This document shows positions 1-9,337 of a DNA stretch of 32,000 nucleotides, piece after piece. How positions within the stretch are numbered: position 1 is the stretch's first letter; each line of letters begins with the position of its first letter. The notes below the pieces were generated by a model that saw only the letters and a program-made list of their open reading frames with translations, searched no databases and was not told the origin of the DNA. The position numbers were made by a program, and so were the translations under genes. Origin of the DNA: Candidatus Baldrarchaeota archaeon (GTDB taxonomy: Archaea; Asgardarchaeota; Baldrarchaeia; Baldrarchaeales; DXJG01); the NCBI GenBank assembly GCA_019056805.1, contig DXJG01000004.1:90001-122000 (forward strand). Reading direction: 5' to 3'.

Positions 1-621
1 CCCAGTAAGATCTGGTCCAAAAGCATACCTCAAATAGTGCCCTGGTGAATTAGGATTCGCCATACTTCCAGTAGTAATTATTTCACCCGTAGGTAACACA
101 ACTTTTAAGCCTAAAACTTGCTCGCCAGTACAGCCGTAGAGAGCCGAACCAGGCCCCGCACCGTTTACCGCAACATTTCCAGCTACAGTTGCTGAAAGAG
201 AGCTCTCAGGATAAATAGGAAACCACAAACCCTTCTCCATCAATATTTTATCCAATTTTCCAAAAGTTATACCAGCCTCCACCGTAACCGACAAATTTTC
301 CTCATTAAGATCTAACACCTCATTCATCCTAGTTAAATCTATGATTATACCTCCTCTTCTCGCTAAAGCCTCTGCTTGAAGTCCTGTTCCTCCACCTCGA
401 GGAATAATTGGAACCTTATATTCATTTGCTAATTTAACGATTTCAGCAACTTCTTCGGTAGTTCTCGGTCTTACAACAAGGTCAGGCATGTAAGAATCAA
501 ATCCTGTAGAAGCTGTCACACTATAAGTAAGAAGCACATCAATGCTATCTGAAACATATTCTTCGCCAACAATGTCCTTTATTCTCTTAGCTATTTCCTT
601 AATTTTCATATCTTTAGACAA
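1..621 (-). CDS. FAD-binding oxidoreductase (GlcD / D-lactate dehydrogenase / FAD-linked oxidase family), N-terminal part; runs off the window start
   Basis: Absent from the ORF track; translated by hand. TTG at 621 lies 6 nt after GGAGGG (alternative ATG at 609). Reads MSKDMKIKEIAKRIKDIVGEEYVSD...PDLVVRPRTTEEVAEIVKLANEYKVPIIPRGGGTG...GGIIIDLTRMNEV...VTVEAGITFG...ATVAGNVAVNG...QVLGLKVVLPTGEII...GPDLTG, typical FAD_binding_4 motifs. Confidence 0.9.
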   Translation of the reverse strand, partial: MSKDMKIKEIAKRIKDIVGEEYVSDSIDVLLTYSVTASTGFDSYMPDLVVRPRTTEEVAEIVKLANEYKVPIIPRGGGTGLQAEALARRGGIIIDLTRMNEVLDLNEENLSVTVEAGITFGKLDKILMEKGLWFPIYPESSLSATVAGNVAVNGAGPGSALYGCTGEQVLGLKVVLPTGEIITTGSMANPNSPGHYLRYAFGPDLTG

Positions 622-654
622 AAACAACCCTCCAACACAGCTAAATATTGTGAA

Positions 655-996
655 TTACTTGAATATTTGTTTTAATTTTAATACATCGCTAAGAGATCCT
701 TTGACTTTCATTTTTCGTCTAATTAGAGCCCATGCAGCACTTTTTGTGCCTTCAAATAACCCTATTAATGTCTCTCTATCTATTTCAATTCTCATATCAG
801 GATTTTCAACTTCTCCTTCTTTTACCGTTATGTTGCCATCTTTAACCTCAAATATATATTTTTCACCAGATTTCAAAGTTAATTGAACAATGCGGTTCCA
901 TCCTTCAATTTTCTTCTTTGTTTCCGGATCCTGCAATCCTTCGTCAATTTTCTTTTGCATATAGCTTAGAAGATCTATTTCTTCACCCTCACCCAT
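655..996 (-). CDS. SCP2 sterol/lipid-binding domain protein
   Basis: YIFEVKDGNITVKEGEVENPDMRIEIDRETLIGLFEG...RKMKVKGSLSDVLKL matches the SCP2 pattern. Start moved from 1008 to ATG 996, which lies 5 nt after GGTGA. Confidence 0.85.
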   Translation of the reverse strand: MGEGEEIDLLSYMQKKIDEGLQDPETKKKIEGWNRIVQLTLKSGEKYIFEVKDGNITVKEGEVENPDMRIEIDRETLIGLFEGTKSAAWALIRRKMKVKGSLSDVLKLKQIFK

Positions 997-1113
997 CCAA
1001 ATCACCACATAACATTATTATCACTTACGATATGTAAATTGAAATATCGATTTCCGCATCCTTAATCTTTTCGGAACTTGAAAACAGAAATCGAAAATTA
1101 AAATTGAAGGTAT

Positions 1114-1130
1114 ATGACTTAAAATGTCAT
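1114..1130. promoter_or_regulatory. Possible operator palindrome ATGAC-N7-GTCAT upstream of the SCP2 gene
   Basis: atgac ttaaaat gtcat in the mtrH-SCP2 intergenic region. The arms are short and could be chance. Confidence 0.2.
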
Positions 1131-1176
1131 TAATTTCCAAAACTATTTTTATAACGTTTTAATTTTATTCTACTAA

Positions 1177-2103
1177 CTAAGACGGTTTCTTAAGTTTCTT
1201 AATGAACGTGTTTAGTGGATGAATATCAGTTTTAACCTTTATTCCTTCGAACTTCAATCCGTAGCTTATTAGAGATTCTATAGCAGCACATGCAGGAAAC
1301 ACGTACGGTGCATATCTGATAGGCCCATATATGATGAAATCTGCCCCAGCCAGTTGAACCATAGTTATTACAGCTGTATGAAAGGTTCTGAAGGAACCAC
1401 GCTTAAAAGGCCAGTTTTCACGGGATGTAAAAGATGCATTACATGGAGCACAACCGCATGGGAGTCCTAACTTACTCTTAATCTCACCTATAGCTTTTAC
1501 TACGAGGGATGTGGTTAAAAGATCTAAAACAGGAGCATCTATTAAAGGCTTTGTAATTCCAGCTTTAACACTTGCTGGAAGCAAAGTATCCTCAAGTACC
1601 TTTAACGTTCCGTTTGGAAAAGGGTTTGAAGTATTTAAAGCAAGTAAAACAGCTGCATCAATACCAAGTTCTCTTATTTTCTCAATTTCTTCATCATTTA
1701 TACGCGGACCTAAAGAATTATAGATAATTCTATCTTTCTCTCCGATTTCAATAGCAAATTTACATCCTTCAATTATGGTGTTAAAATTCGGAGAATCAAC
1801 TAAAATAGGAGCATCAGTTATCTCAAATATAAAAGATAAATAGTTTTTCATTGCTTCTGGTGTTTCAGCAATAACATCAACAGCATGAGGACAACCTGTT
1901 CCAGCGGAATATTTTTCCTGTATTTCAACTAACCTTTTAGCTTTAGTTTTATCGAATAGCCCCTTTTTGTGGTCAAAAACTACTTTGTGACCTTTAAAAA
2001 ATATGCTTCCAATCAATACAGGTGGATACTCTCCAGGTTGACCACCAAACTTTACTTCTCCTATCTCAAAAACTCTCTGTTCAACTGGAAACCTTCGAAT
2101 CAA
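1177..2103 (-). CDS. mtrH: MtrH/MtgA-family pterin:corrinoid methyltransferase (tetrahydromethanopterin S-methyltransferase subunit H homologue)
   Basis: N-terminal FEIGEVKFGGQPGEYPPVLIGSIFF-x-GH; ILVDS; IIYNSL; C-terminal GADFIIYGPI. TTG start overlaps the metE stop (TTGA). No other mtr subunits are in the window. Confidence 0.88.
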   Translation of the reverse strand: MIRRFPVEQRVFEIGEVKFGGQPGEYPPVLIGSIFFKGHKVVFDHKKGLFDKTKAKRLVEIQEKYSAGTGCPHAVDVIAETPEAMKNYLSFIFEITDAPILVDSPNFNTIIEGCKFAIEIGEKDRIIYNSLGPRINDEEIEKIRELGIDAAVLLALNTSNPFPNGTLKVLEDTLLPASVKAGITKPLIDAPVLDLLTTSLVVKAIGEIKSKLGLPCGCAPCNASFTSRENWPFKRGSFRTFHTAVITMVQLAGADFIIYGPIRYAPYVFPACAAIESLISYGLKFEGIKVKTDIHPLNTFIKKLKKPS

Positions 2104-3014
2104 AGTTCTTCCTCCACAATTTTCCTTGCTGCTTCGACCATAAGCTTAAGCTTTTCTTTCGCAATTTCTCTATCTAGTATTCTAAGACCACAGTCCGGAT
2201 GAACAACAACGTTATCTATACCAAAACGTATTACAGCTTTTCTCAAAATCCTCAAAATATGCTCAAAATCCTCAACTCTATTTATATCCGTTCTCACGCA
2301 TCCAACACCAATCTTCTTACCGTAGTCCTCAAGTTTTTCTTTTGATATAACCTCAAAATTCTCAGGATAAGCCGCAAAGGCATGGCTTAGAACACTTATC
2401 CCTTCGAAATCTAAGATCGTATTAAAGATTTTCTTGATATTGCCACATACATGTAAAGCAACTGGAACTTTTACATTCAAAGCTATTTTTTCAACGGCTT
2501 TCTTAGCTATATCCGTGGGAAAAGGAGTGACGGAGTACATAGGTTCATCTATCTGTATAGCATCTACTCCAGCTTTTTCAAGCCTTTCAGCCTCTACTGC
2601 AAGAGCTTCCGCAACATCCATATACAATCTTTCATCCCTATAGCCGGAGTAAGGTGAAGTTTTCCCAAGTCCCGTTGAAAAAACAAGAGTTACAGGCCCA
2701 GTTAATATACCCTTCACTTCAGCTTTGCCCTTAACATAACTTTTCACCCACCGAATATCATTAATTAGAAACGGCTCTTCTGAAGGCTGTATTCTACCCA
2801 CAATGTAGCTTTTCTCACCTTGAACTTTAAAACCGGGCAAGTGCGCTGTAAAATATTTTATCATATCGTATCTTGTTTGTCCATCAGAGATGAGTTTCAC
2901 ACCAGCCTCCAATTGGTCATCTACAGCAATTTTAATAGCATGTAAAAAGGGATCTTTTTCCTCTTTCTTAGGCTTTGCAGGGTAACTTCCTATAACGGTT
3001 GTGAGAAGTTCCAC
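2100..3014 (-). CDS. metE: Short (core, single-barrel) methionine synthase, MetE C-terminal domain type
   Basis: TTVIGSYP, DQLEAGVKLISDGQTR, GPVTL, IQIDEP, Zn motifs LHVCG and HPDCGL. Only 304 aa with no N-terminal folate-binding barrel. GTG start after AGGAGGT. Confidence 0.88.
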   Translation of the reverse strand: MELLTTVIGSYPAKPKKEEKDPFLHAIKIAVDDQLEAGVKLISDGQTRYDMIKYFTAHLPGFKVQGEKSYIVGRIQPSEEPFLINDIRWVKSYVKGKAEVKGILTGPVTLVFSTGLGKTSPYSGYRDERLYMDVAEALAVEAERLEKAGVDAIQIDEPMYSVTPFPTDIAKKAVEKIALNVKVPVALHVCGNIKKIFNTILDFEGISVLSHAFAAYPENFEVISKEKLEDYGKKIGVGCVRTDINRVEDFEHILRILRKAVIRFGIDNVVVHPDCGLRILDREIAKEKLKLMVEAARKIVEEEL

Positions 3015-3944
3015 TTAATCTACCTCCTGCTTAATTTCTTCAATAAGCTGGGTAGCAAGATTAGTATCCTTACATATTACGTGTATCCCATTAAACCCAA
3101 GTTCTCGAGCTTTAACAGCGATTTCCACGCAATTTTTAATTCCCATTTTAACATTTTTCCCCTTTTCTCTAAAATGTTCAATTATCCAAGAAGGTACATT
3201 GAAACTTGGAAAAGACATTAAGAAATTTAATTGTTCTCTTGAAATAATTGGGTAAATACTTACAATAATTGGAATTGGAAATCTGCCAATGAAATCTTTA
3301 AATGATGTTAGGACCTCAGGGTCAAAAACCATTTGAGTAAAAGCATATTCTGCTCCAGCATCAACTTTCATAAAAAATCTTTCCTTCTCTTCCTCTAAAG
3401 ATTTTGCAGATAAATTAACCACAACTCCAACATGCAACTCAGGTTTCCTCTCAAGCTGTAACTCAGATAAAAGCTTTTCTCCATCAATGAGATTTTTAAT
3501 CATTTTTACAGCTTGGATGGAGTTAATATCAAAAACAGGCTTAATATCCTTATTCATCATGGAGAGATCTCCAGTTACAACAACTATATTACGAATATTT
3601 AATATAACGGCTCCTAAAACCTCGGATACAATAGCAAGTCTATTCTTATCTCTACAACAAATGGTCATAATAGTTTCCACACCACCCCTCCTTTGAAGTT
3701 CACTACATAAAGCTAACGGGTGAGGAAAACTTTTTGCAAAAGGATTATTTGGAACAACAAAAGCATCAAAAAGCTCTCTAACTCTACTAACTTCTTCCAA
3801 AACCTCTTTAATTGCAAACTTCTTTAATCGTGCAACTTCCAACGTAAAAACAAAGCTCTCTTTCTTTAACGTTTCTAAAAACTTCGAATAACTATATTTA
3901 AAGTCATCATTTTTATCTGAATCTGGCACCTCTAAACCTCGCAC
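3015..3944 (-). CDS. metF: Methylenetetrahydrofolate reductase family protein
   Basis: FTLEV, TICCRDKNR, VVVTGD, VFDINSIQAV, GAEYAFTQMVFD match the MTHFR fold. Its stop directly abuts the metE start (TAA-GTG). Confidence 0.85.
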   Translation of the reverse strand: MRGLEVPDSDKNDDFKYSYSKFLETLKKESFVFTLEVARLKKFAIKEVLEEVSRVRELFDAFVVPNNPFAKSFPHPLALCSELQRRGGVETIMTICCRDKNRLAIVSEVLGAVILNIRNIVVVTGDLSMMNKDIKPVFDINSIQAVKMIKNLIDGEKLLSELQLERKPELHVGVVVNLSAKSLEEEKERFFMKVDAGAEYAFTQMVFDPEVLTSFKDFIGRFPIPIIVSIYPIISREQLNFLMSFPSFNVPSWIIEHFREKGKNVKMGIKNCVEIAVKARELGFNGIHVICKDTNLATQLIEEIKQEVD

Positions 3945-4104
3945 CCTAACCTAACTTAACTTTTACTTAAATCATAATGTCTAGAAAATATAAAACTATT
4001 TAAGTTTACACTTAAAGACAACATGTAAAGATTTGTAGTTTTAATAAAATTAACTTACCAAACAATTTTATAGTCCAACAACATATTTTTCCCAGTTTTA
4101 CCCT

Positions 4105-4698
4105 TTGGAGGTGATAGTTATACCAGTTGTCAAAGGCAAGGGATTTGAAGCAGAAGCTGTTATAGAAGTTGCAAGACTCATGGTTAATAGTGCTAGGACA
4201 GCTCCTAAATCAGCTGGAATAGATGACATAGAAATAGCATTAGTCTATGGAGCTGAAAAAGATGCATTGGTAGAGAAAATGCTTGAAATGGCAGAAGAGA
4301 AAAATGATATATTTTTTAAAAGAGATGCGAAAAGCGTAGAAAAAGCTCAAGCAGTACTCTTAATAGGAGTTAACGGTGGAAACCCGCTATGGATAAATTG
4401 CGGCGCATGTGGCTTCAAAACTTGCGAAGAATTCAAAAAAACAGAAAGAAAAGATTATGAACATTTCAAAGGACCTAACTGTGTATTTAAACTTCTAGAT
4501 TTAGGAATAGCAATAGGATCAGCGGTAAAAACTGCAAGTATACTAAATGTAGACAACAGAATCATGTTCAGGGCAGGAACGGCAGCAAGAAAACTAAAAT
4601 ATCTTGAAAGTGACGTAATAATGGCAATACCCTTAGCATCACTAGGAAAAAACCCATTCTTCGACAGAAAAGCACCAATATACAAACCAACAAAATAA
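4105..4698 (+). CDS. DUF2148 / COG4739 family protein with Cys cluster (putative Fe-S)
   Basis: ARTAPK-x-AGIDDI, NCGACGFKTC, GPNC, DLGIAIGSA, VDNRIM, GKNPFFDR. The true start may be ATA at 4120 (see findings). Confidence 0.8.
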   Translation: MEVIVIPVVKGKGFEAEAVIEVARLMVNSARTAPKSAGIDDIEIALVYGAEKDALVEKMLEMAEEKNDIFFKRDAKSVEKAQAVLLIGVNGGNPLWINCGACGFKTCEEFKKTERKDYEHFKGPNCVFKLLDLGIAIGSAVKTASILNVDNRIMFRAGTAARKLKYLESDVIMAIPLASLGKNPFFDRKAPIYKPTK

Positions 4699-4701
4699 AA
4701 C

Positions 4702-6393
4702 CTACGATATTTTTACATTATATTCCTTCTCAACTGTTTTAATTGTAACTTTCCCATCTAACAAGTCTTCTTTAATTTTTTCGCCATCTCTTTTCCGTGG
4801 ATCTCCGTAACCTCCCCCGCCCGGAGTTCTAATAATTATAACGTCTCCCTTATCTAGCTTAAATATACATTTACTTCTAAGCTTAACTTCTCTTCCATCC
4901 TTTTTTATGACTAGGTATTCTCCGGGTTCCCCAGGTTTTCCTCCAAATAAACCCCAGGGAGCTGTTTTATGTCTTTCACCAAGCGTACTCAAAGTTGCTT
5001 CACACAAAATTTTGTATATTCTTTCTATTCCTAGACCACCTCTCCATTGCCCAGCTCCCCCGCTATCCTCTCTTAAACTGTATTTTAATATCATTATTGG
5101 ATATCTTGCTTCAATTTCCTCGATAGGTGTATTCATGGTATTTGTCATATGGCTGTGAATTCCGTCCAAGCCATCTAATCCTTTTCTTCCTCCATATCCT
5201 CCACCAATTGTTTCATAAAAACTGAAAGGTTCCCCAGTTTTTGGATCCATGCCTCCAATACAAATATTGTTCATAGTTCCCTGACAAGCAGCTGGCACGC
5301 GATCAGGTACAATATTAGCAAAAGCTTTTAGTAATACATCAACTATGCGTTGAGAAGTTTCAACATTACCACCAGCAACAGCAGCAGGAAACTTAGCATT
5401 TAACAAGCACCCTTCAGGAGCATATACAGTTAAAGGCCTATAAGTACCTTCATTTGCAGGTATAGTTGGATCTGTTATACTTCTAAGAACATAATAAGAA
5501 CATGAAAGAGTTACTGGAAAAGGACAATTAATAGGACCATCAACCTGAGGATCAGTACCAGAAAAATCAAACCTAACACTATTATCCTTAATTTCAACCT
5601 TCACATGTACTCTTACAGGTTCATCAGAAATACCGTCATCATCCATGTAATCTTCTGCCTCGTAAACCCCGCTAGGCATCTTAGAAATTTCGGCTCTCAT
5701 TCTTCTCTCAGCATATCCTAAAATATCATCAACAATTTCACGAAAAGTTTCCAAACCATACCTTTCAATAAGTTCAACAACCCGTTTCTCTCCAATTTTA
5801 TTAGCTGCCATTTGAGCGTAAAGATCACCCATTCTAATATTAGGAGTCCTAACATTACTCAAAATAAGTCTAAGAACATCTTTTTCGATCTTTCCACGAC
5901 GAACAATTTTAACAGGAGGAATTATAAATCCCTCCTGAAAAATTTCAGTCGCATCACCCGGCATACTGCCAGGAGACTTACCACCCACGTCACTATGATG
6001 AGCACGACTCACAGAAAAACCAACAATCTCTCTCCCATAAAATATTGGTGAAATTAAAGTTATATCTGGAAGATGAGTCCCACCCCTATAAGGATCATTC
6101 AAAATAATCATATCACCTTTCTCAATTTCACCCTCAAAGTCTTTCAAAACAGTTTTTACAGCTAAGGGCATAGCTCCAAGGTGAACAGGTATATGTTCAG
6201 CTTGAGCGAGCATTTTACCTTGAGCATCAAATATAGCGCAACTATGGTCCATACGCTCCTTAATATTAGCTGAGTATGCTGCGTTTCTCAAAACTATACC
6301 CATTTCCTCAGCGGTGTATTCAAGAGCACCCATGATCACCTGCGTAACAATAATACGTTTCCCATATTTTTTGCTGTTCACAACAATCACCAT
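4702..6393 (-). CDS. hyuB: Hydantoinase B / 5-oxoprolinase subunit B
   Basis: AYSANIKERMDHSCAIFD, AEHIPVHLGAM, NDPYRGGTHLPD, HHSDVGG, GGNVETSQR, ETIGGGYG, SGGAGQWRGG, TPGGGGYGDP. Possible alternative start GTG at 6381. Confidence 0.92.
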   Translation of the reverse strand: MVIVVNSKKYGKRIIVTQVIMGALEYTAEEMGIVLRNAAYSANIKERMDHSCAIFDAQGKMLAQAEHIPVHLGAMPLAVKTVLKDFEGEIEKGDMIILNDPYRGGTHLPDITLISPIFYGREIVGFSVSRAHHSDVGGKSPGSMPGDATEIFQEGFIIPPVKIVRRGKIEKDVLRLILSNVRTPNIRMGDLYAQMAANKIGEKRVVELIERYGLETFREIVDDILGYAERRMRAEISKMPSGVYEAEDYMDDDGISDEPVRVHVKVEIKDNSVRFDFSGTDPQVDGPINCPFPVTLSCSYYVLRSITDPTIPANEGTYRPLTVYAPEGCLLNAKFPAAVAGGNVETSQRIVDVLLKAFANIVPDRVPAACQGTMNNICIGGMDPKTGEPFSFYETIGGGYGGRKGLDGLDGIHSHMTNTMNTPIEEIEARYPIMILKYSLREDSGGAGQWRGGLGIERIYKILCEATLSTLGERHKTAPWGLFGGKPGEPGEYLVIKKDGREVKLRSKCIFKLDKGDVIIIRTPGGGGYGDPRKRDGEKIKEDLLDGKVTIKTVEKEYNVKIS

Positions 6394-6485
6394 ATATAAA
6401 ACTCTGCTTAAGTAAGGCGAAACTGCATTGATCTTACAATGTTATCTAACTAAGTTTAAATGTACTACTTATAATTACTTAACTT

Positions 6486-6503
6486 AATATCCAAACGGAT
6501 ATT
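6486..6503. promoter_or_regulatory. Palindrome AATATCC-N4-GGATATT in the divergent hyuB/tldD intergenic region, possible operator
   Basis: Perfect 7-bp arms about 35 nt upstream of the tldD start. Confidence 0.3.
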
Positions 6504-6536
6504 TGTAGTGTTTAATTTGATAAGGGAGGATTGTTT

Positions 6537-7982
6537 TTGGAGCATGAAGATTTAGCTGAGTATGCAATTGAAGTAGGTGAAAAACTTGGCGTAGATTACA
6601 TCGAAGCTAGGCTTCAGAGGAATCTAAACAATGTTTTTCTATTAAAAAACGGTGTACCAGAAGCATCTGGGATAGAATCGTCCTTCGGTATCGGTGTAAG
6701 AGTTTTGGTCGATGGTGGCATGGGTTTTGTAAGCGTAAATCATTTCACAAAAGAACTTGTAAAGGAAAAAGTTGAAGAAGCAGTAAAAATAGCGAAAGCA
6801 TCTTCAAAAGTAAGGAAAAAGCCCATTGTTCTTTCAGAAGAGAAAATTGTGAAAGGTTCTTGGAAAACAATTTTTAGGCAAAATCCACTAGATGTACCAC
6901 CAGAAGAAAAATTGGAAATACTTTTAGATGTTGATAAAGCTATCCTCGACGTTGGGAACCGTTTAAAGGCAATGATCCCAGGGAGACTTCTACAGCTAAT
7001 GGACACCTATATCTACAAGTATTATGTGAATAGTGAAGGAACAAAGATTAGAAGCGAGATTTTAGGGGTTTCAGGATTTGCCGTAATAACAGTTGTAGAA
7101 CCATCTACAGGAGGATTTGAACAACAATACATGGATGTTGGAGCCACAAAAGGATACGAAGTATTAAAAGAATGGAATCTACCTAAAAAATGTGCAGATC
7201 TCGCTGAAATCTTGATTAAAATACTGAGAGAGGCAAAGAAACCTGTAACAGAGGAAGTAGATGTAGTTCTTGGACCTCAAATTGTAGGCATTGCTTGTCA
7301 CGAATCAGTGGGACATCCATATGAAGCAGATAGAATTTTGGGAAGAGAGGCAGCTCAAGCAGGAGAAAGTTTTGTTAAAAAAGAAATGCTAGGCCAAAAA
7401 GTCGGTAGTGAAGTAGTGAATGTTGTGGATGATCCAACAATTCCCAATTCCTATGGATACTATAGGTATGATGATGAAGGAGTACCAGCTAGGAAAAGAT
7501 ACCTCATCAAAAATGGAGTAATCAATGAATTTTTACACAACAGAGAAACTGCAGGCGAGTTTGGAATTCAAAGTAACGCTGCTGCAAGAGCTATGGGCTA
7601 TAATCGTGAACCTATTGTAAGAATGGCGAACACCTATCTTGAACCTGGAGATTATTCTTTTGAAGAACTTATTGAAGACATAAAAATAGGCGTTTACATG
7701 AAAACTTTTGGTGAATGGAACATAGATGACCGCAGATTTAACCAAAGATACATAGGTAAAGAGGCGTACCTAATTGAAAAGGGCGAAATAAAACATCTTG
7801 TGAAAAATCCAATTCTTGAAATAACAACCCCAGCATTCTGGAGCAGCGTTGACGCTGTGGGAAAAGCAGAGCTAATGGAGTTTGAAGCAGCTTTATGTGG
7901 TAAAGGAGACCCTGGTCAAGGAGCACCAGTATGGCATGGAGGGCCGCCTGCAAGATTAAGAAAAATCAAACTTGGAGGTTAA
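6537..7982 (+). CDS. tldD: TldD family metalloprotease
   Basis: HExxxH motif HESVGH(PYEADR); YDDEGV; PIVRMANTY; C-terminal CGKG. TTG 6537 lies 7 nt after GGAGG, whereas TTG 6531 abuts the SD. Confidence 0.92.
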   Translation: MEHEDLAEYAIEVGEKLGVDYIEARLQRNLNNVFLLKNGVPEASGIESSFGIGVRVLVDGGMGFVSVNHFTKELVKEKVEEAVKIAKASSKVRKKPIVLSEEKIVKGSWKTIFRQNPLDVPPEEKLEILLDVDKAILDVGNRLKAMIPGRLLQLMDTYIYKYYVNSEGTKIRSEILGVSGFAVITVVEPSTGGFEQQYMDVGATKGYEVLKEWNLPKKCADLAEILIKILREAKKPVTEEVDVVLGPQIVGIACHESVGHPYEADRILGREAAQAGESFVKKEMLGQKVGSEVVNVVDDPTIPNSYGYYRYDDEGVPARKRYLIKNGVINEFLHNRETAGEFGIQSNAAARAMGYNREPIVRMANTYLEPGDYSFEELIEDIKIGVYMKTFGEWNIDDRRFNQRYIGKEAYLIEKGEIKHLVKNPILEITTPAFWSSVDAVGKAELMEFEAALCGKGDPGQGAPVWHGGPPARLRKIKLGG

Positions 7983-7987
7983 AAACG

Positions 7988-9337
7988 ATGGAAAAAGTAG
8001 ATATTTATGATTTAGCCGATTTCATTGTTAAGGAAGGACTTAAACTAGGTGTAGACGAAGTTGCTGCCCTTATTCACGGAGTAGTAAAAAGACAAGTGAG
8101 ATTTTCTAACAACCAAGTAACAATAGCGAAAACTTGGGACGAAATCGTAGCTGAAGTATACATGGCTAAAAATAGAAAAATTGTTATGTGTACTGTCACT
8201 GATATTTCACAAAAATCGTTAAGGGAGACCTTAAACAAACTTGTTCACGTAGCAAATGTGGCTAAAGAATCAGAGAACTATGAAGAACTGCCAGAAGGGC
8301 CTTTCACGTACAAAAGTCTTTCTGAAACATATGATTCAAAAATTGTACAGCTTGGAGAACAAGTTGTAGGTTTTGCTGAAGAAGCGATAAAATCAGCTTT
8401 AGAAGCGGGAGGAAAACGGGTAGCTGGAACTCTTTACTCCGAATATGGCGAAACAGTGCTTGTTACATCGAGAAATGTAGAAGCTCGAGATAAAGGAACG
8501 AGAATTGAAATAACTGTAAGATCTTTTGCTGATGATGAAGGAGTAGCTCAAGGAATGGGACTATCAGTATCTCGTATTTTAAGTAAGTTCGACCCGTCGA
8601 AAGCAGGTAGAAAAGCTGGGGAAACATCAAAAATGGCCTTAAACCCGACCACAGGAAAACCTGGAACATACAATATTGTATTTGGTCCATATTGCTTTGC
8701 AAATCTGCTAGACTTTACCTCCATGGCTTTCTCAGCATTTTTTGTAGATAGCGGTTTAAGTCCCTTAGCAGATAAATTAAACAAACAAATAGCACCTGGA
8801 AAAGTTACGATAATAGATGACCCTCATTTACCTAACGGTTATAATTCTCGTTCTTTTGATGATGAGGGTGTACCTACAAGGCAAAATGAACTAATAAAGA
8901 ATGGCACTGTCAACACTTTTCTCCATAATGTAAAGACAGCTAAAAAATTCAATACGAAAACCACTGCAAACGCTGGTTGGATAGTACCTCATGCATGGAA
9001 TATTGTGTTTAAAACAGGAGACTATGGATTCGATGAATTACTAGAAGACGTAAGAAATGGCATTTTAATTGAAAACACTTGGTACACACGTTTTCAAAAC
9101 TATAGAACTGGCGACTTTTCAACAATACCCCGTGACGGAATATTCTTAGTAGAAAATGGCGAAGTGAAGAAAGCTATCAGAGGTATTAGAGTTTCAGACA
9201 ACATAGTAAAACTCTTCAACAATATTACCGGATTTACAAAGGAAACAGAACAAGTTCACTGGTGGGAAGTAGAAACTCCTGTAATAACTCCATATGTCGC
9301 AGTAAAAGACGTTAAAATCACAACAGCAACAAAATAA
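7988..9337 (+). CDS. pmbA: PmbA/TldE family protein
   Basis: RFSNNQV, FDDEGVPT, STIPRDG, IRGIRVSDN; no HExxxH. Starts 5 nt after the tldD stop at ATG 7988 (SD GGAGGT). The ORF-track extension to 7931 overlaps tldD. Confidence 0.9.
   Translation: MEKVDIYDLADFIVKEGLKLGVDEVAALIHGVVKRQVRFSNNQVTIAKTWDEIVAEVYMAKNRKIVMCTVTDISQKSLRETLNKLVHVANVAKESENYEELPEGPFTYKSLSETYDSKIVQLGEQVVGFAEEAIKSALEAGGKRVAGTLYSEYGETVLVTSRNVEARDKGTRIEITVRSFADDEGVAQGMGLSVSRILSKFDPSKAGRKAGETSKMALNPTTGKPGTYNIVFGPYCFANLLDFTSMAFSAFFVDSGLSPLADKLNKQIAPGKVTIIDDPHLPNGYNSRSFDDEGVPTRQNELIKNGTVNTFLHNVKTAKKFNTKTTANAGWIVPHAWNIVFKTGDYGFDELLEDVRNGILIENTWYTRFQNYRTGDFSTIPRDGIFLVENGEVKKAIRGIRVSDNIVKLFNNITGFTKETEQVHWWEVETPVITPYVAVKDVKITTATK

Follow-up and report, generated by a model that had tools for sequence, protein, structure and literature searches.

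The window analysed here is a 32,000-nucleotide stretch of DNA (G000:C11:90001-122000) whose closest named proteins and loci belong to Candidatus Baldrarchaeota, an Asgard lineage. It comes from a genome of 1.92 Mb that is 91% complete, so every gene absence reported below means "not found" only. Near one end lies a three-gene operon, metF-metE-mtrH, whose products probably act together as a split methionine synthase that depends on a corrinoid: MetF would make a methyl-pterin, MtrH would pass the methyl group to a corrinoid, and a core MetE would pass it on to homocysteine. In order of transcription, the genes are as follows.

3015..3944, minus strand: operon gene 1, MetF-like methylene-pterin reductase (P0001, 309 amino acids [aa]; PF02219)
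2100..3014, minus strand: core MetE of the MesA type, a predicted zinc homocysteine methyltransferase (P0002, 304 aa; PF01717)
1177..2103, minus strand: MtrH-family methyl-pterin:corrinoid methyltransferase, the MetE-linked paralogue (P0003, 308 aa; PF02007)

The TAA of metF ends at 3015 and metE begins with GTG at 3014, a GGAGGT motif lying 8-9 nt upstream. At the next junction the TGA of metE (2102-2100) and the TTG of mtrH (2103-2101) overlap as TTGA, with GGAGG upstream. An earlier, sequence-only reading had described three coupled genes with abutting and overlapping junctions, and the open reading frames (ORFs) bear this out: metF-metE-mtrH is a translationally coupled minus-strand operon. 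A T-rich spacer of 168 bp follows 3' of mtrH.

What kind of methionine synthase is P0002? Its sole Pfam domain is the Meth_synt_2 catalytic barrel (PF01717, 135 bits, above the cut-off), and it passes the NCBIfam model NF002119, the PRK00957 methionine-synthase equivalog, with 298.4 bits (cut-off, 258), a model on which a MesA-type protein of Methanopyri reaches 326.5 bits. The homocysteine-binding residues S10 and D156 correspond to S433 and D599 of Escherichia coli MetE, and Q46 replaces E484. A Gln at this position is a trait of MesA and MesC (Price et al., PMC7857596). The zinc ligands H188, C190, and C275 correspond to E. coli H641, C643, and C726. The absence of the pterin-binding N-terminal barrel, noticed in the sequence-only reading, extends to the whole genome: Meth_synt_1 has no separate protein there, the only weak match being MetE itself. 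P0002 is the only Meth_synt_2 gene found by profile search, the MetH-type homocysteine domain (S-methyl_trans, PF02574) has no match in the genome, and the only Pterin_bind (PF00809) match is a 433-aa frame outside the operon. P0002 is thus the sole recognisable methionine synthase of the genome, with a predicted function as a methylcobalamin:homocysteine methyltransferase. A split MetE, a MetH or split MetH, and an MtrA-dependent MesA were all considered and rejected, since Meth_synt_1, PF02574, and MtrA (PF04208), respectively, were not found in the genome.

The closest described enzyme is MesA, the methylcobalamin:homocysteine methyltransferase (a core MetE) of methanogens (Price et al. 2021, PMC7857596; Schroeder and Thauer 1999 as cited in PMC7005905). 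In the account of Price et al., MesA is confined to methanogens and is predicted to receive its methyl group from MtrA (PMC7857596). P0002 shares with it a length of about 300 aa, the catalytic barrel as the only domain, a passing PRK00957 score, the S/Q/D residues, and the H-x-C plus C ligands. It differs in that its host is an uncultured, non-methanogenic Asgard archaeon without a detected MtrA, in having Ala at the Glu665 position, in belonging to a clade separate from the methanogen-type members, and in being encoded with MetF and MtrH. Its identity to the methanogen-type members compared is 34-39%; the MesA criterion of Price et al. 2021 refers to the characterised MesA (about 40% identity or more).

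P0003 is a clear member of the MtrH family (PF02007, 245 bits, above the cut-off) and narrowly passes the NCBIfam subfamily NF002142 (288.4 versus 287 bits). It falls below the equivalog for MtrH of the Mtr complex, TIGR01114 (230.3 versus 271.4 bits), which the genome's second MtrH, MtrH2, passes with 310 bits; the two are 41-42% identical. No other mtr genes surround P0003, and MtrA had no match in the genome. P0003 aligns end to end (220.8 bits) with a methylcorrinoid:tetrahydrofolate methyltransferase of solved structure, 6SJ8, and its pterin-site Asp (in LVDS) and Asn (in CAPCNA) align with the LLDS motif, which holds the mutated Asp, and CAPSNA of that enzyme. It also scores higher against tetrahydrofolate (THF)-type MtgA than against methanogen MtrH.

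P0001 matches PF02219 (MTHFR) with 90.9 bits, above the Pfam cut-off, and falls far below the curated equivalogs (68.5 versus 293.7 bits for TIGR00676 and 35.5 versus 382 bits for PRK09432). Equivalents of E. coli E28, D120 (in TGD), Q183, and K172 are retained. Identity is 57-59% inside the genus, and the next best match among 1.8 billion representatives is only 38% identical; by these comparisons P0001 is an isolated, divergent MetF lineage. Its nearest relatives outside the genus sit in contexts of the Wood-Ljungdahl or acetogen type, either AcsE-like then MetF or MetV-MetF-HdrA-like. A true F420-type Mer is encoded elsewhere in the genome (444 bits versus a cut-off of 348.7), and P0001 would therefore be an additional, dedicated methylene-pterin reductase. 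In one genus member (L014:5042-6140; G039:C135), frame changes or stops interrupt the first third of metF, with two TGA and two TAG codons in read-through. This leaves a metF ORF of 217 aa; MetE and MtrH are intact. The break may be either an assembly error, the bin being 9% contaminated, or real decay of MetF.

How widespread is this arrangement? Among 301 Asgard genomes, this type of MetE occurs in 22, spread over six genera, and MtrH and MetF adjoin it only in the genus of the window, in all four of its genomes. A wider scan took one genome per GTDB species and yielded 80 loci, the neighbours of which were screened with phmmer. All 25 Methanomethylicota loci have the order corrinoid protein-MetE-MtrH, with overlapping genes, as far as the contigs reach; these loci (L028-L060) include the cultured Methanosuratincola petrocarbonis LWZ-6 and M. 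verstraetei LCB70. The corrinoid protein encoded ahead of MetE-MtrH carries B12-binding_2 and B12-binding domains (Pfam). The Baldrarchaeia operon shares with that of Methanomethylicota the MetE-MtrH order, the overlapping genes, and a sister MtrH clade; it differs in having MetF in the upstream slot and no corrinoid gene, and the proteins are 45-52% (MetE) and about 38-40% (MtrH) identical. The trio is syntenic in all four genus genomes despite differing flanks, and this, together with the pair in 25 of 25 Methanomethylicota loci, puts the arrangement beyond chance. The neighbourhood search suggested in the sequence-only reading finds the MetE-MtrH pair conserved elsewhere, the exact trio only in this genus.

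Other members of the MetE clade adjoin further parts of corrinoid methyl transfer. A Thermoplasmata locus (L098) encodes MetF-MtrA-MtrH and, 1.3 kb further, MetE-DUF4346. Its MetF is only 26% identical to P0001, which indicates that MetF joined such modules independently, at least twice. In Freyrarchaeia and Jordarchaeia, MetE is convergent with a gene of the MttB family and a corrinoid protein gene, and on one metagenomic contig (L114:320-4548) a MetE homologue of 57% identity is flanked by genes for a methyltransferase of the MtmB family and a corrinoid activase of the RACo/RamA type. Within 8 kb of MetE, no neighbours of the MtrH, MetF, or corrinoid type were found in Asgardarchaeum, Hodarchaeia, Odinarchaeia, 28 Dehalococcoidia, or the methanogen members. 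The Dehalococcoidia/Chloroflexota core MetE genes form a clade (28 genes; L061-L089, L094). They are 43-47% identical to the archaeal protein, have Gly at the Glu665 position in the single aligned member (L069), and suggest an inter-domain transfer of a MesA-like enzyme other than the MesB already characterised. A long-branched outgroup is formed by Asgard family f15 (L102, L103, and L104), in which MetE-like genes of about 317 and 324 aa occur as pairs, in tandem or close together, and retain Glu484; in L104 a corrinoid protein lies between the two.

The phylogeny of MtrH adds to this picture. In a careful IQ-TREE analysis of 47 proteins (a quick version was also made), the MetE-linked MtrH proteins of Baldrarchaeia and Methanomethylicota fall on one side of a branch with an ultrafast bootstrap of 99 and an SH-aLRT of 95; 29 further MtrH proteins, MtrH2 of this genome among them, fall on the opposite side. 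The groups are defined by MetE linkage itself, and the outgroup consists of the best matches to P0003, canonical Mtr-complex MtrH not being included. The residues that separate MetE-linked MtrH from the others, A74, R239, and E276 plus a short C-terminal extension, are too few to interpret. In the MetE tree, made by a quick method, the window sequence groups with other Asgard sequences, Methanomethylicota with Odinarchaeia, and the methanogen-type members in their own clade apart from P0002. Its deep nodes are weak (84-87), so that joint inheritance of the MetE-MtrH pair is not settled by this tree.

In the proposed route, MetF would reduce a methylene-pterin, probably of tetrahydromethanopterin (H4MPT), to the methyl-pterin. 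Serine, through serine hydroxymethyltransferase (SHMT), or the Wood-Ljungdahl branch could supply the methylene group. The MtrH paralogue would then move the methyl group onto a Co(I) corrinoid, and methyl-Co(III) would serve the core MetE as donor for the methylation of zinc-activated homocysteine to methionine. The net result would be the chemistry of MetH performed by unrelated stand-alone proteins, with a carrier encoded outside the operon. Gene identities, coupling, key residues, distribution, and phylogeny form the direct basis for this proposal; from these we infer which way the methyl group moves, which pterin and which carrier take part, and every one of the activities. The arguments in its favor are several. 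(i) The genes are tightly coupled, with Shine-Dalgarno motifs at both junctions. (ii) The only recognisable methionine synthase keeps its homocysteine-binding and three zinc-ligand residues. (iii) Every sampled Methanomethylicota locus joins a corrinoid protein to MetE and MtrH. (iv) The MetE-linked MtrH proteins of the two lineages form one branch. (v) Other MetE-clade members, in Thermoplasmata, Freyrarchaeia, Jordarchaeia, and the MtmB/RACo contig, adjoin corrinoid methyl-transfer parts. (vi) MetF joined such modules more than once, and Mer elsewhere marks the operon's MetF as a dedicated extra. (vii) MetF and MtrH retain their catalytic residues. The chain from MetF through MtrH and a corrinoid carrier to core MetE, first put forward from the bare sequence, has accordingly gained support from the Methanomethylicota operon, the Thermoplasmata locus, the MtrH clade, and the sole-synthase status of P0002.

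Which pterin is likely to be used? Mch and SHMT are present in the genome, and FTHFS, FolD, and MetV were not found in genome searches. With Mch and Mer present and FTHFS and FolD not found, a THF-based one-carbon branch is disfavoured and H4MPT is the likelier pterin; the methyl branch of the Wood-Ljungdahl pathway looks H4MPT based, with its own reductase. The higher score of P0003 against THF-type MtgA counts against H4MPT.

What about the carrier? As the sequence-only reading observed, the operon is not accompanied by a corrinoid protein or by other mtr genes. Its suggestion to search the genome for stand-alone B12-binding proteins turned up one, of 222 aa (G000:C11:158735-159400), albeit far from the operon. 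This single small corrinoid protein has the DxHxxG motif, scores 240.7 bits on TIGR02370 (cut-off, 215.3), and is 38% identical to the carrier of the Methanomethylicota operon; small corrinoid proteins also occur in two of the three other genus genomes. It belongs to a complete module located 34-37 kb past the end of the window (G000:C11:155963-159400; L101:6964-10404) that encodes an MttB-family protein (pyrrolysine-free, with no in-frame TAG), MtrH2, and the corrinoid protein. The module resembles the glycine betaine system MtgB/MtgA/MtgC and is the likely source of a shared carrier. The other B12-binding matches in the genome were rejected as carriers, being B12-binding radical S-adenosylmethionine (SAM) enzymes. 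The corrinoid iron-sulfur protein (CoFeSP) subunits CdhD and CdhE are encoded on contig C6, and yet another corrinoid protein of the genome, of 369 aa (L011:1441-2550; G000:C9:563249-564358), fuses the C-terminal part of the corrinoid domain of CdhD with a 2x[4Fe-4S] ferredoxin; its gene immediately follows that of a SAM methyltransferase, and it is possibly HgcAB-like. The archaeal CoFeSP complex is methylated from methyl-H4MPT by its own subunits, which makes the small protein the likelier candidate for a carrier that requires loading by MtrH. The most likely carrier would therefore be the small corrinoid protein, shared with the MttB/MtrH2 demethylation module; CoFeSP, or a cobamide without a dedicated carrier, is less likely. 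There is precedent for sharing in Ruegeria pomeroyi, where neither the demethylation of glycine betaine nor the synthesis of methionine can do without the corrinoid-binding MtgC (PMC12478193).

Could the operon work without a carrier? MetE and MtrH might form a complex in which MtrH stands in for the missing pterin barrel, the methyl group passing directly or via a cobamide held at the interface. The 4-nt overlap of the two genes suggests matched production of the proteins, and the operon contains no carrier gene, though its Methanomethylicota sister does. A carrierless cobamide shuttle is also chemically possible, since MtrH is reported to methylate cob(I)alamin and core MetEs to use methylated corrinoids in vitro (PMC7005905). 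However, the Km of a core MetE for free methylcobalamin is reported as about 240 uM, which has been judged unphysiological (PMC7005905), a corrinoid protein is encoded alongside the closest relatives of this MtrH, and MtrH-family chemistry requires a Co(I) nucleophile; a strictly corrinoid-free transfer has no known precedent in this family. Carrier-free operation is on balance unlikely, and the notion, floated in the sequence-only reading, that MtrH takes the place of the folate barrel without any corrinoid gained no support.

Several further observations weigh against the split route. No corrinoid protein gene lies in or near the operon, the candidate carrier being 65 kb away (37 kb beyond the end of the window). 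That candidate has its own adjacent MtrH, MtrH2, which leaves the second MtrH unexplained, and no small corrinoid protein was seen in genus member G018, a genome that is 84% complete. The exact MetF-MetE-MtrH trio is limited to one genus, and the nearest MetE relatives, in Asgardarchaeum and Hodarchaeia, lack MtrH or corrinoid neighbours. Finally, the fourth zinc ligand, Glu665, is replaced by Ala212 in P0002 (motif LSHAFA). Across the MetE clade this position is A, S, G, or E, with Glu in the Asgardarchaeum, Hodarchaeia, Odinarchaeia, Methanopyri, and Thermoplasmata members.

The restricted distribution bears on whether the three proteins act together at all. MetF and MtrH could instead serve general one-carbon metabolism and MetE could be methylated from CoFeSP, as predicted for MesB and MesC; the CdhD and CdhE genes are present, the trio is genus restricted, and the MetE genes of Asgardarchaeum, Hodarchaeia, and Odinarchaeia stand alone. 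Set against this are the translational coupling at both junctions, the occurrence of the MetE-MtrH pair in another phylum together with a MetE-specific MtrH clade, and the fact that Mer and MtrH2 already serve general one-carbon needs, so that an absence of joint function appears highly improbable. The altered zinc site, in turn, bears on the direction of flow. A MetE-like enzyme might demethylate methionine or a methylthio compound onto a corrinoid, MtrH might transfer the methyl group to a pterin, and MetF might oxidise it to methylene-pterin for the Wood-Ljungdahl pathway. Apart from the lost Glu665 equivalent, this would fit the presence of Mer and of the methylotrophic MttB/MtrH2/corrinoid module, and MtrH-type reactions are reversible, MtgD being bidirectional (PMC12478193). 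The genome would then, however, have no recognisable methionine synthase left; the residues that bind homocysteine are those seen in MesA, and the same MetE clade is always found inside the corrinoid protein-MetE-MtrH operon in the Methanomethylicota loci sampled (25/25). A catabolic role is thus very unlikely, and the biosynthetic split route is preferred.

How does this proposed route compare with known systems? MetH (EC 2.1.1.13) shares the flow from methyl-pterin to Co(I) to homocysteine as proposed here, but combines unrelated homocysteine and pterin domains in one polypeptide that also contains a SAM-dependent reactivation domain. No counterpart of the reactivation domain was identified for the Baldrarchaeia system. 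MtgBCDE of R. pomeroyi (PMC12478193) likewise has separate pterin-methyltransferase, corrinoid-protein, and homocysteine-methyltransferase parts; in the present genome no PF02574 was found, and a core MetE barrel would carry out the homocysteine step and an MtrH-family protein the pterin step. To the MtgA/MtgB/MtgC glycine betaine system of Desulfitobacterium hafniense, the 6SJ8 family, P0003 is related over its full length, and the genome's MttB/MtrH2/corrinoid locus has the same three kinds of components. P0003, by contrast, is paired with MetE and MetF rather than an MttB-type substrate methyltransferase, and the methyl group is proposed to move from the pterin to the corrinoid.

Core MetEs use methylcobalamin in vitro, and their presumed in vivo donor is a corrinoid protein (PMC7857596, PMC7005905). 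Among the candidates considered by Deobald et al. (PMC7005905) are MtrH and as yet unknown corrinoid proteins. A Yellowstone study described Methanomethylicia mtrH near corrinoid protein and methyltransferase genes, which were read as serving unknown methylated substrates (PMC10033731). The GapMind 2026 paper mentions neither MtrH nor MesA, and a literature search joining Baldrarchaeota or Methanosuratincola with MtrH returned nothing. No paper on the operon was found, in keeping with the earlier impression that it is uncharacterised. The physiological donor of core MetE has been an open question since 1999, resting so far on in vitro activity with free methylcobalamin and on genomic predictions (MtrA, CoFeSP). 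The MetE-MtrH operons name concrete natural partners for core methionine synthases, and the Baldrarchaeia form adds the upstream reductase, such that one operon would span the path from methylene-pterin to methionine. They also suggest a biosynthetic job for some of the orphan "methanogenesis-like" mtrH genes of non-methanogens, which are usually read as signs of methylotrophy. Such a reinterpretation affects metabolic reconstructions of Asgard and TACK archaea.

Upstream of metF, the locus continues with a spacer and a divergent gene.

3945..4104, no strand: AT-rich divergent intergenic region of 160 bp with a TATAAA-type box; a block conserved in four genus genomes (alignment); putative promoter
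4105..4698, plus strand: divergent neighbour, DUF2148 Fe-S protein (197 aa; PF09918, 109.9 bits, plus a weak PF04060 Fe-S motif)

The block DUF2148/MetF-MetE-MtrH is kept in all four genus genomes, with differing outer flanks, and the adjacency of the DUF2148 gene to the operon is seen only in this genus. The DUF2148 family itself is widespread and highly conserved in archaea, with about 3,900 matches at 55-62% identity. Four Cys of the DUF2148 protein are invariant. The AlphaFold model (pLDDT, 89.7) has a nitroreductase-like fold, with a Z score of 13.4 to iodotyrosine deiodinase and FMN nitroreductases; no solved structural relative was found by sequence, and no literature on DUF2148 was found. 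CblC, reductive dehalogenases, and QueG bind B12 with a fold of this type. One speculation is that the Baldrarchaeia version dispenses with a classical carrier, either because MetE and MtrH share a cobamide directly or because DUF2148 acts as a corrinoid binder or reductive activator. This is decidedly unlikely; if true, either form would represent a new kind of minimal B12-dependent methionine synthase. A link between DUF2148 and the methionine operon is tentative, and a role as a general partner of MetF, MetE, and MtrH was rejected, as three homologue contexts (in another Baldrarchaeia, a Bathyarchaeia, and an Archaeoglobaceae) show no such link. On an Archaeoglobaceae contig (L107:4633-6648), DUF2148 lies beside a 472-aa Pterin_bind/PterinBD-DUF4346 protein.

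No Rfam families matched in positions 1-8000 of the window at a permissive threshold. About 5.6 kb beyond mtrH (G000:C11:84496-85541; L115:6496-7541) are a gene resembling an ECF S component (201 aa, a weak match) and a DUF4430 gene (153 aa), a putative pair for corrinoid uptake. Asgardarchaeum abyssi (L015:11255-12296) has a DUF4430 gene and an overlapping 201-aa gene with no Pfam match 4.3 kb from its MetE, a pair likened to the former by layout rather than by sequence. Downstream of mtrH (window positions 1-1008 and L115:10038-12628) are genes for an SCP2-domain protein, a GlcD-like FAD-linked oxidase, and a CCG/Fer4 protein that is GlcF- or HdrD-like, the order of which varies within the genus.

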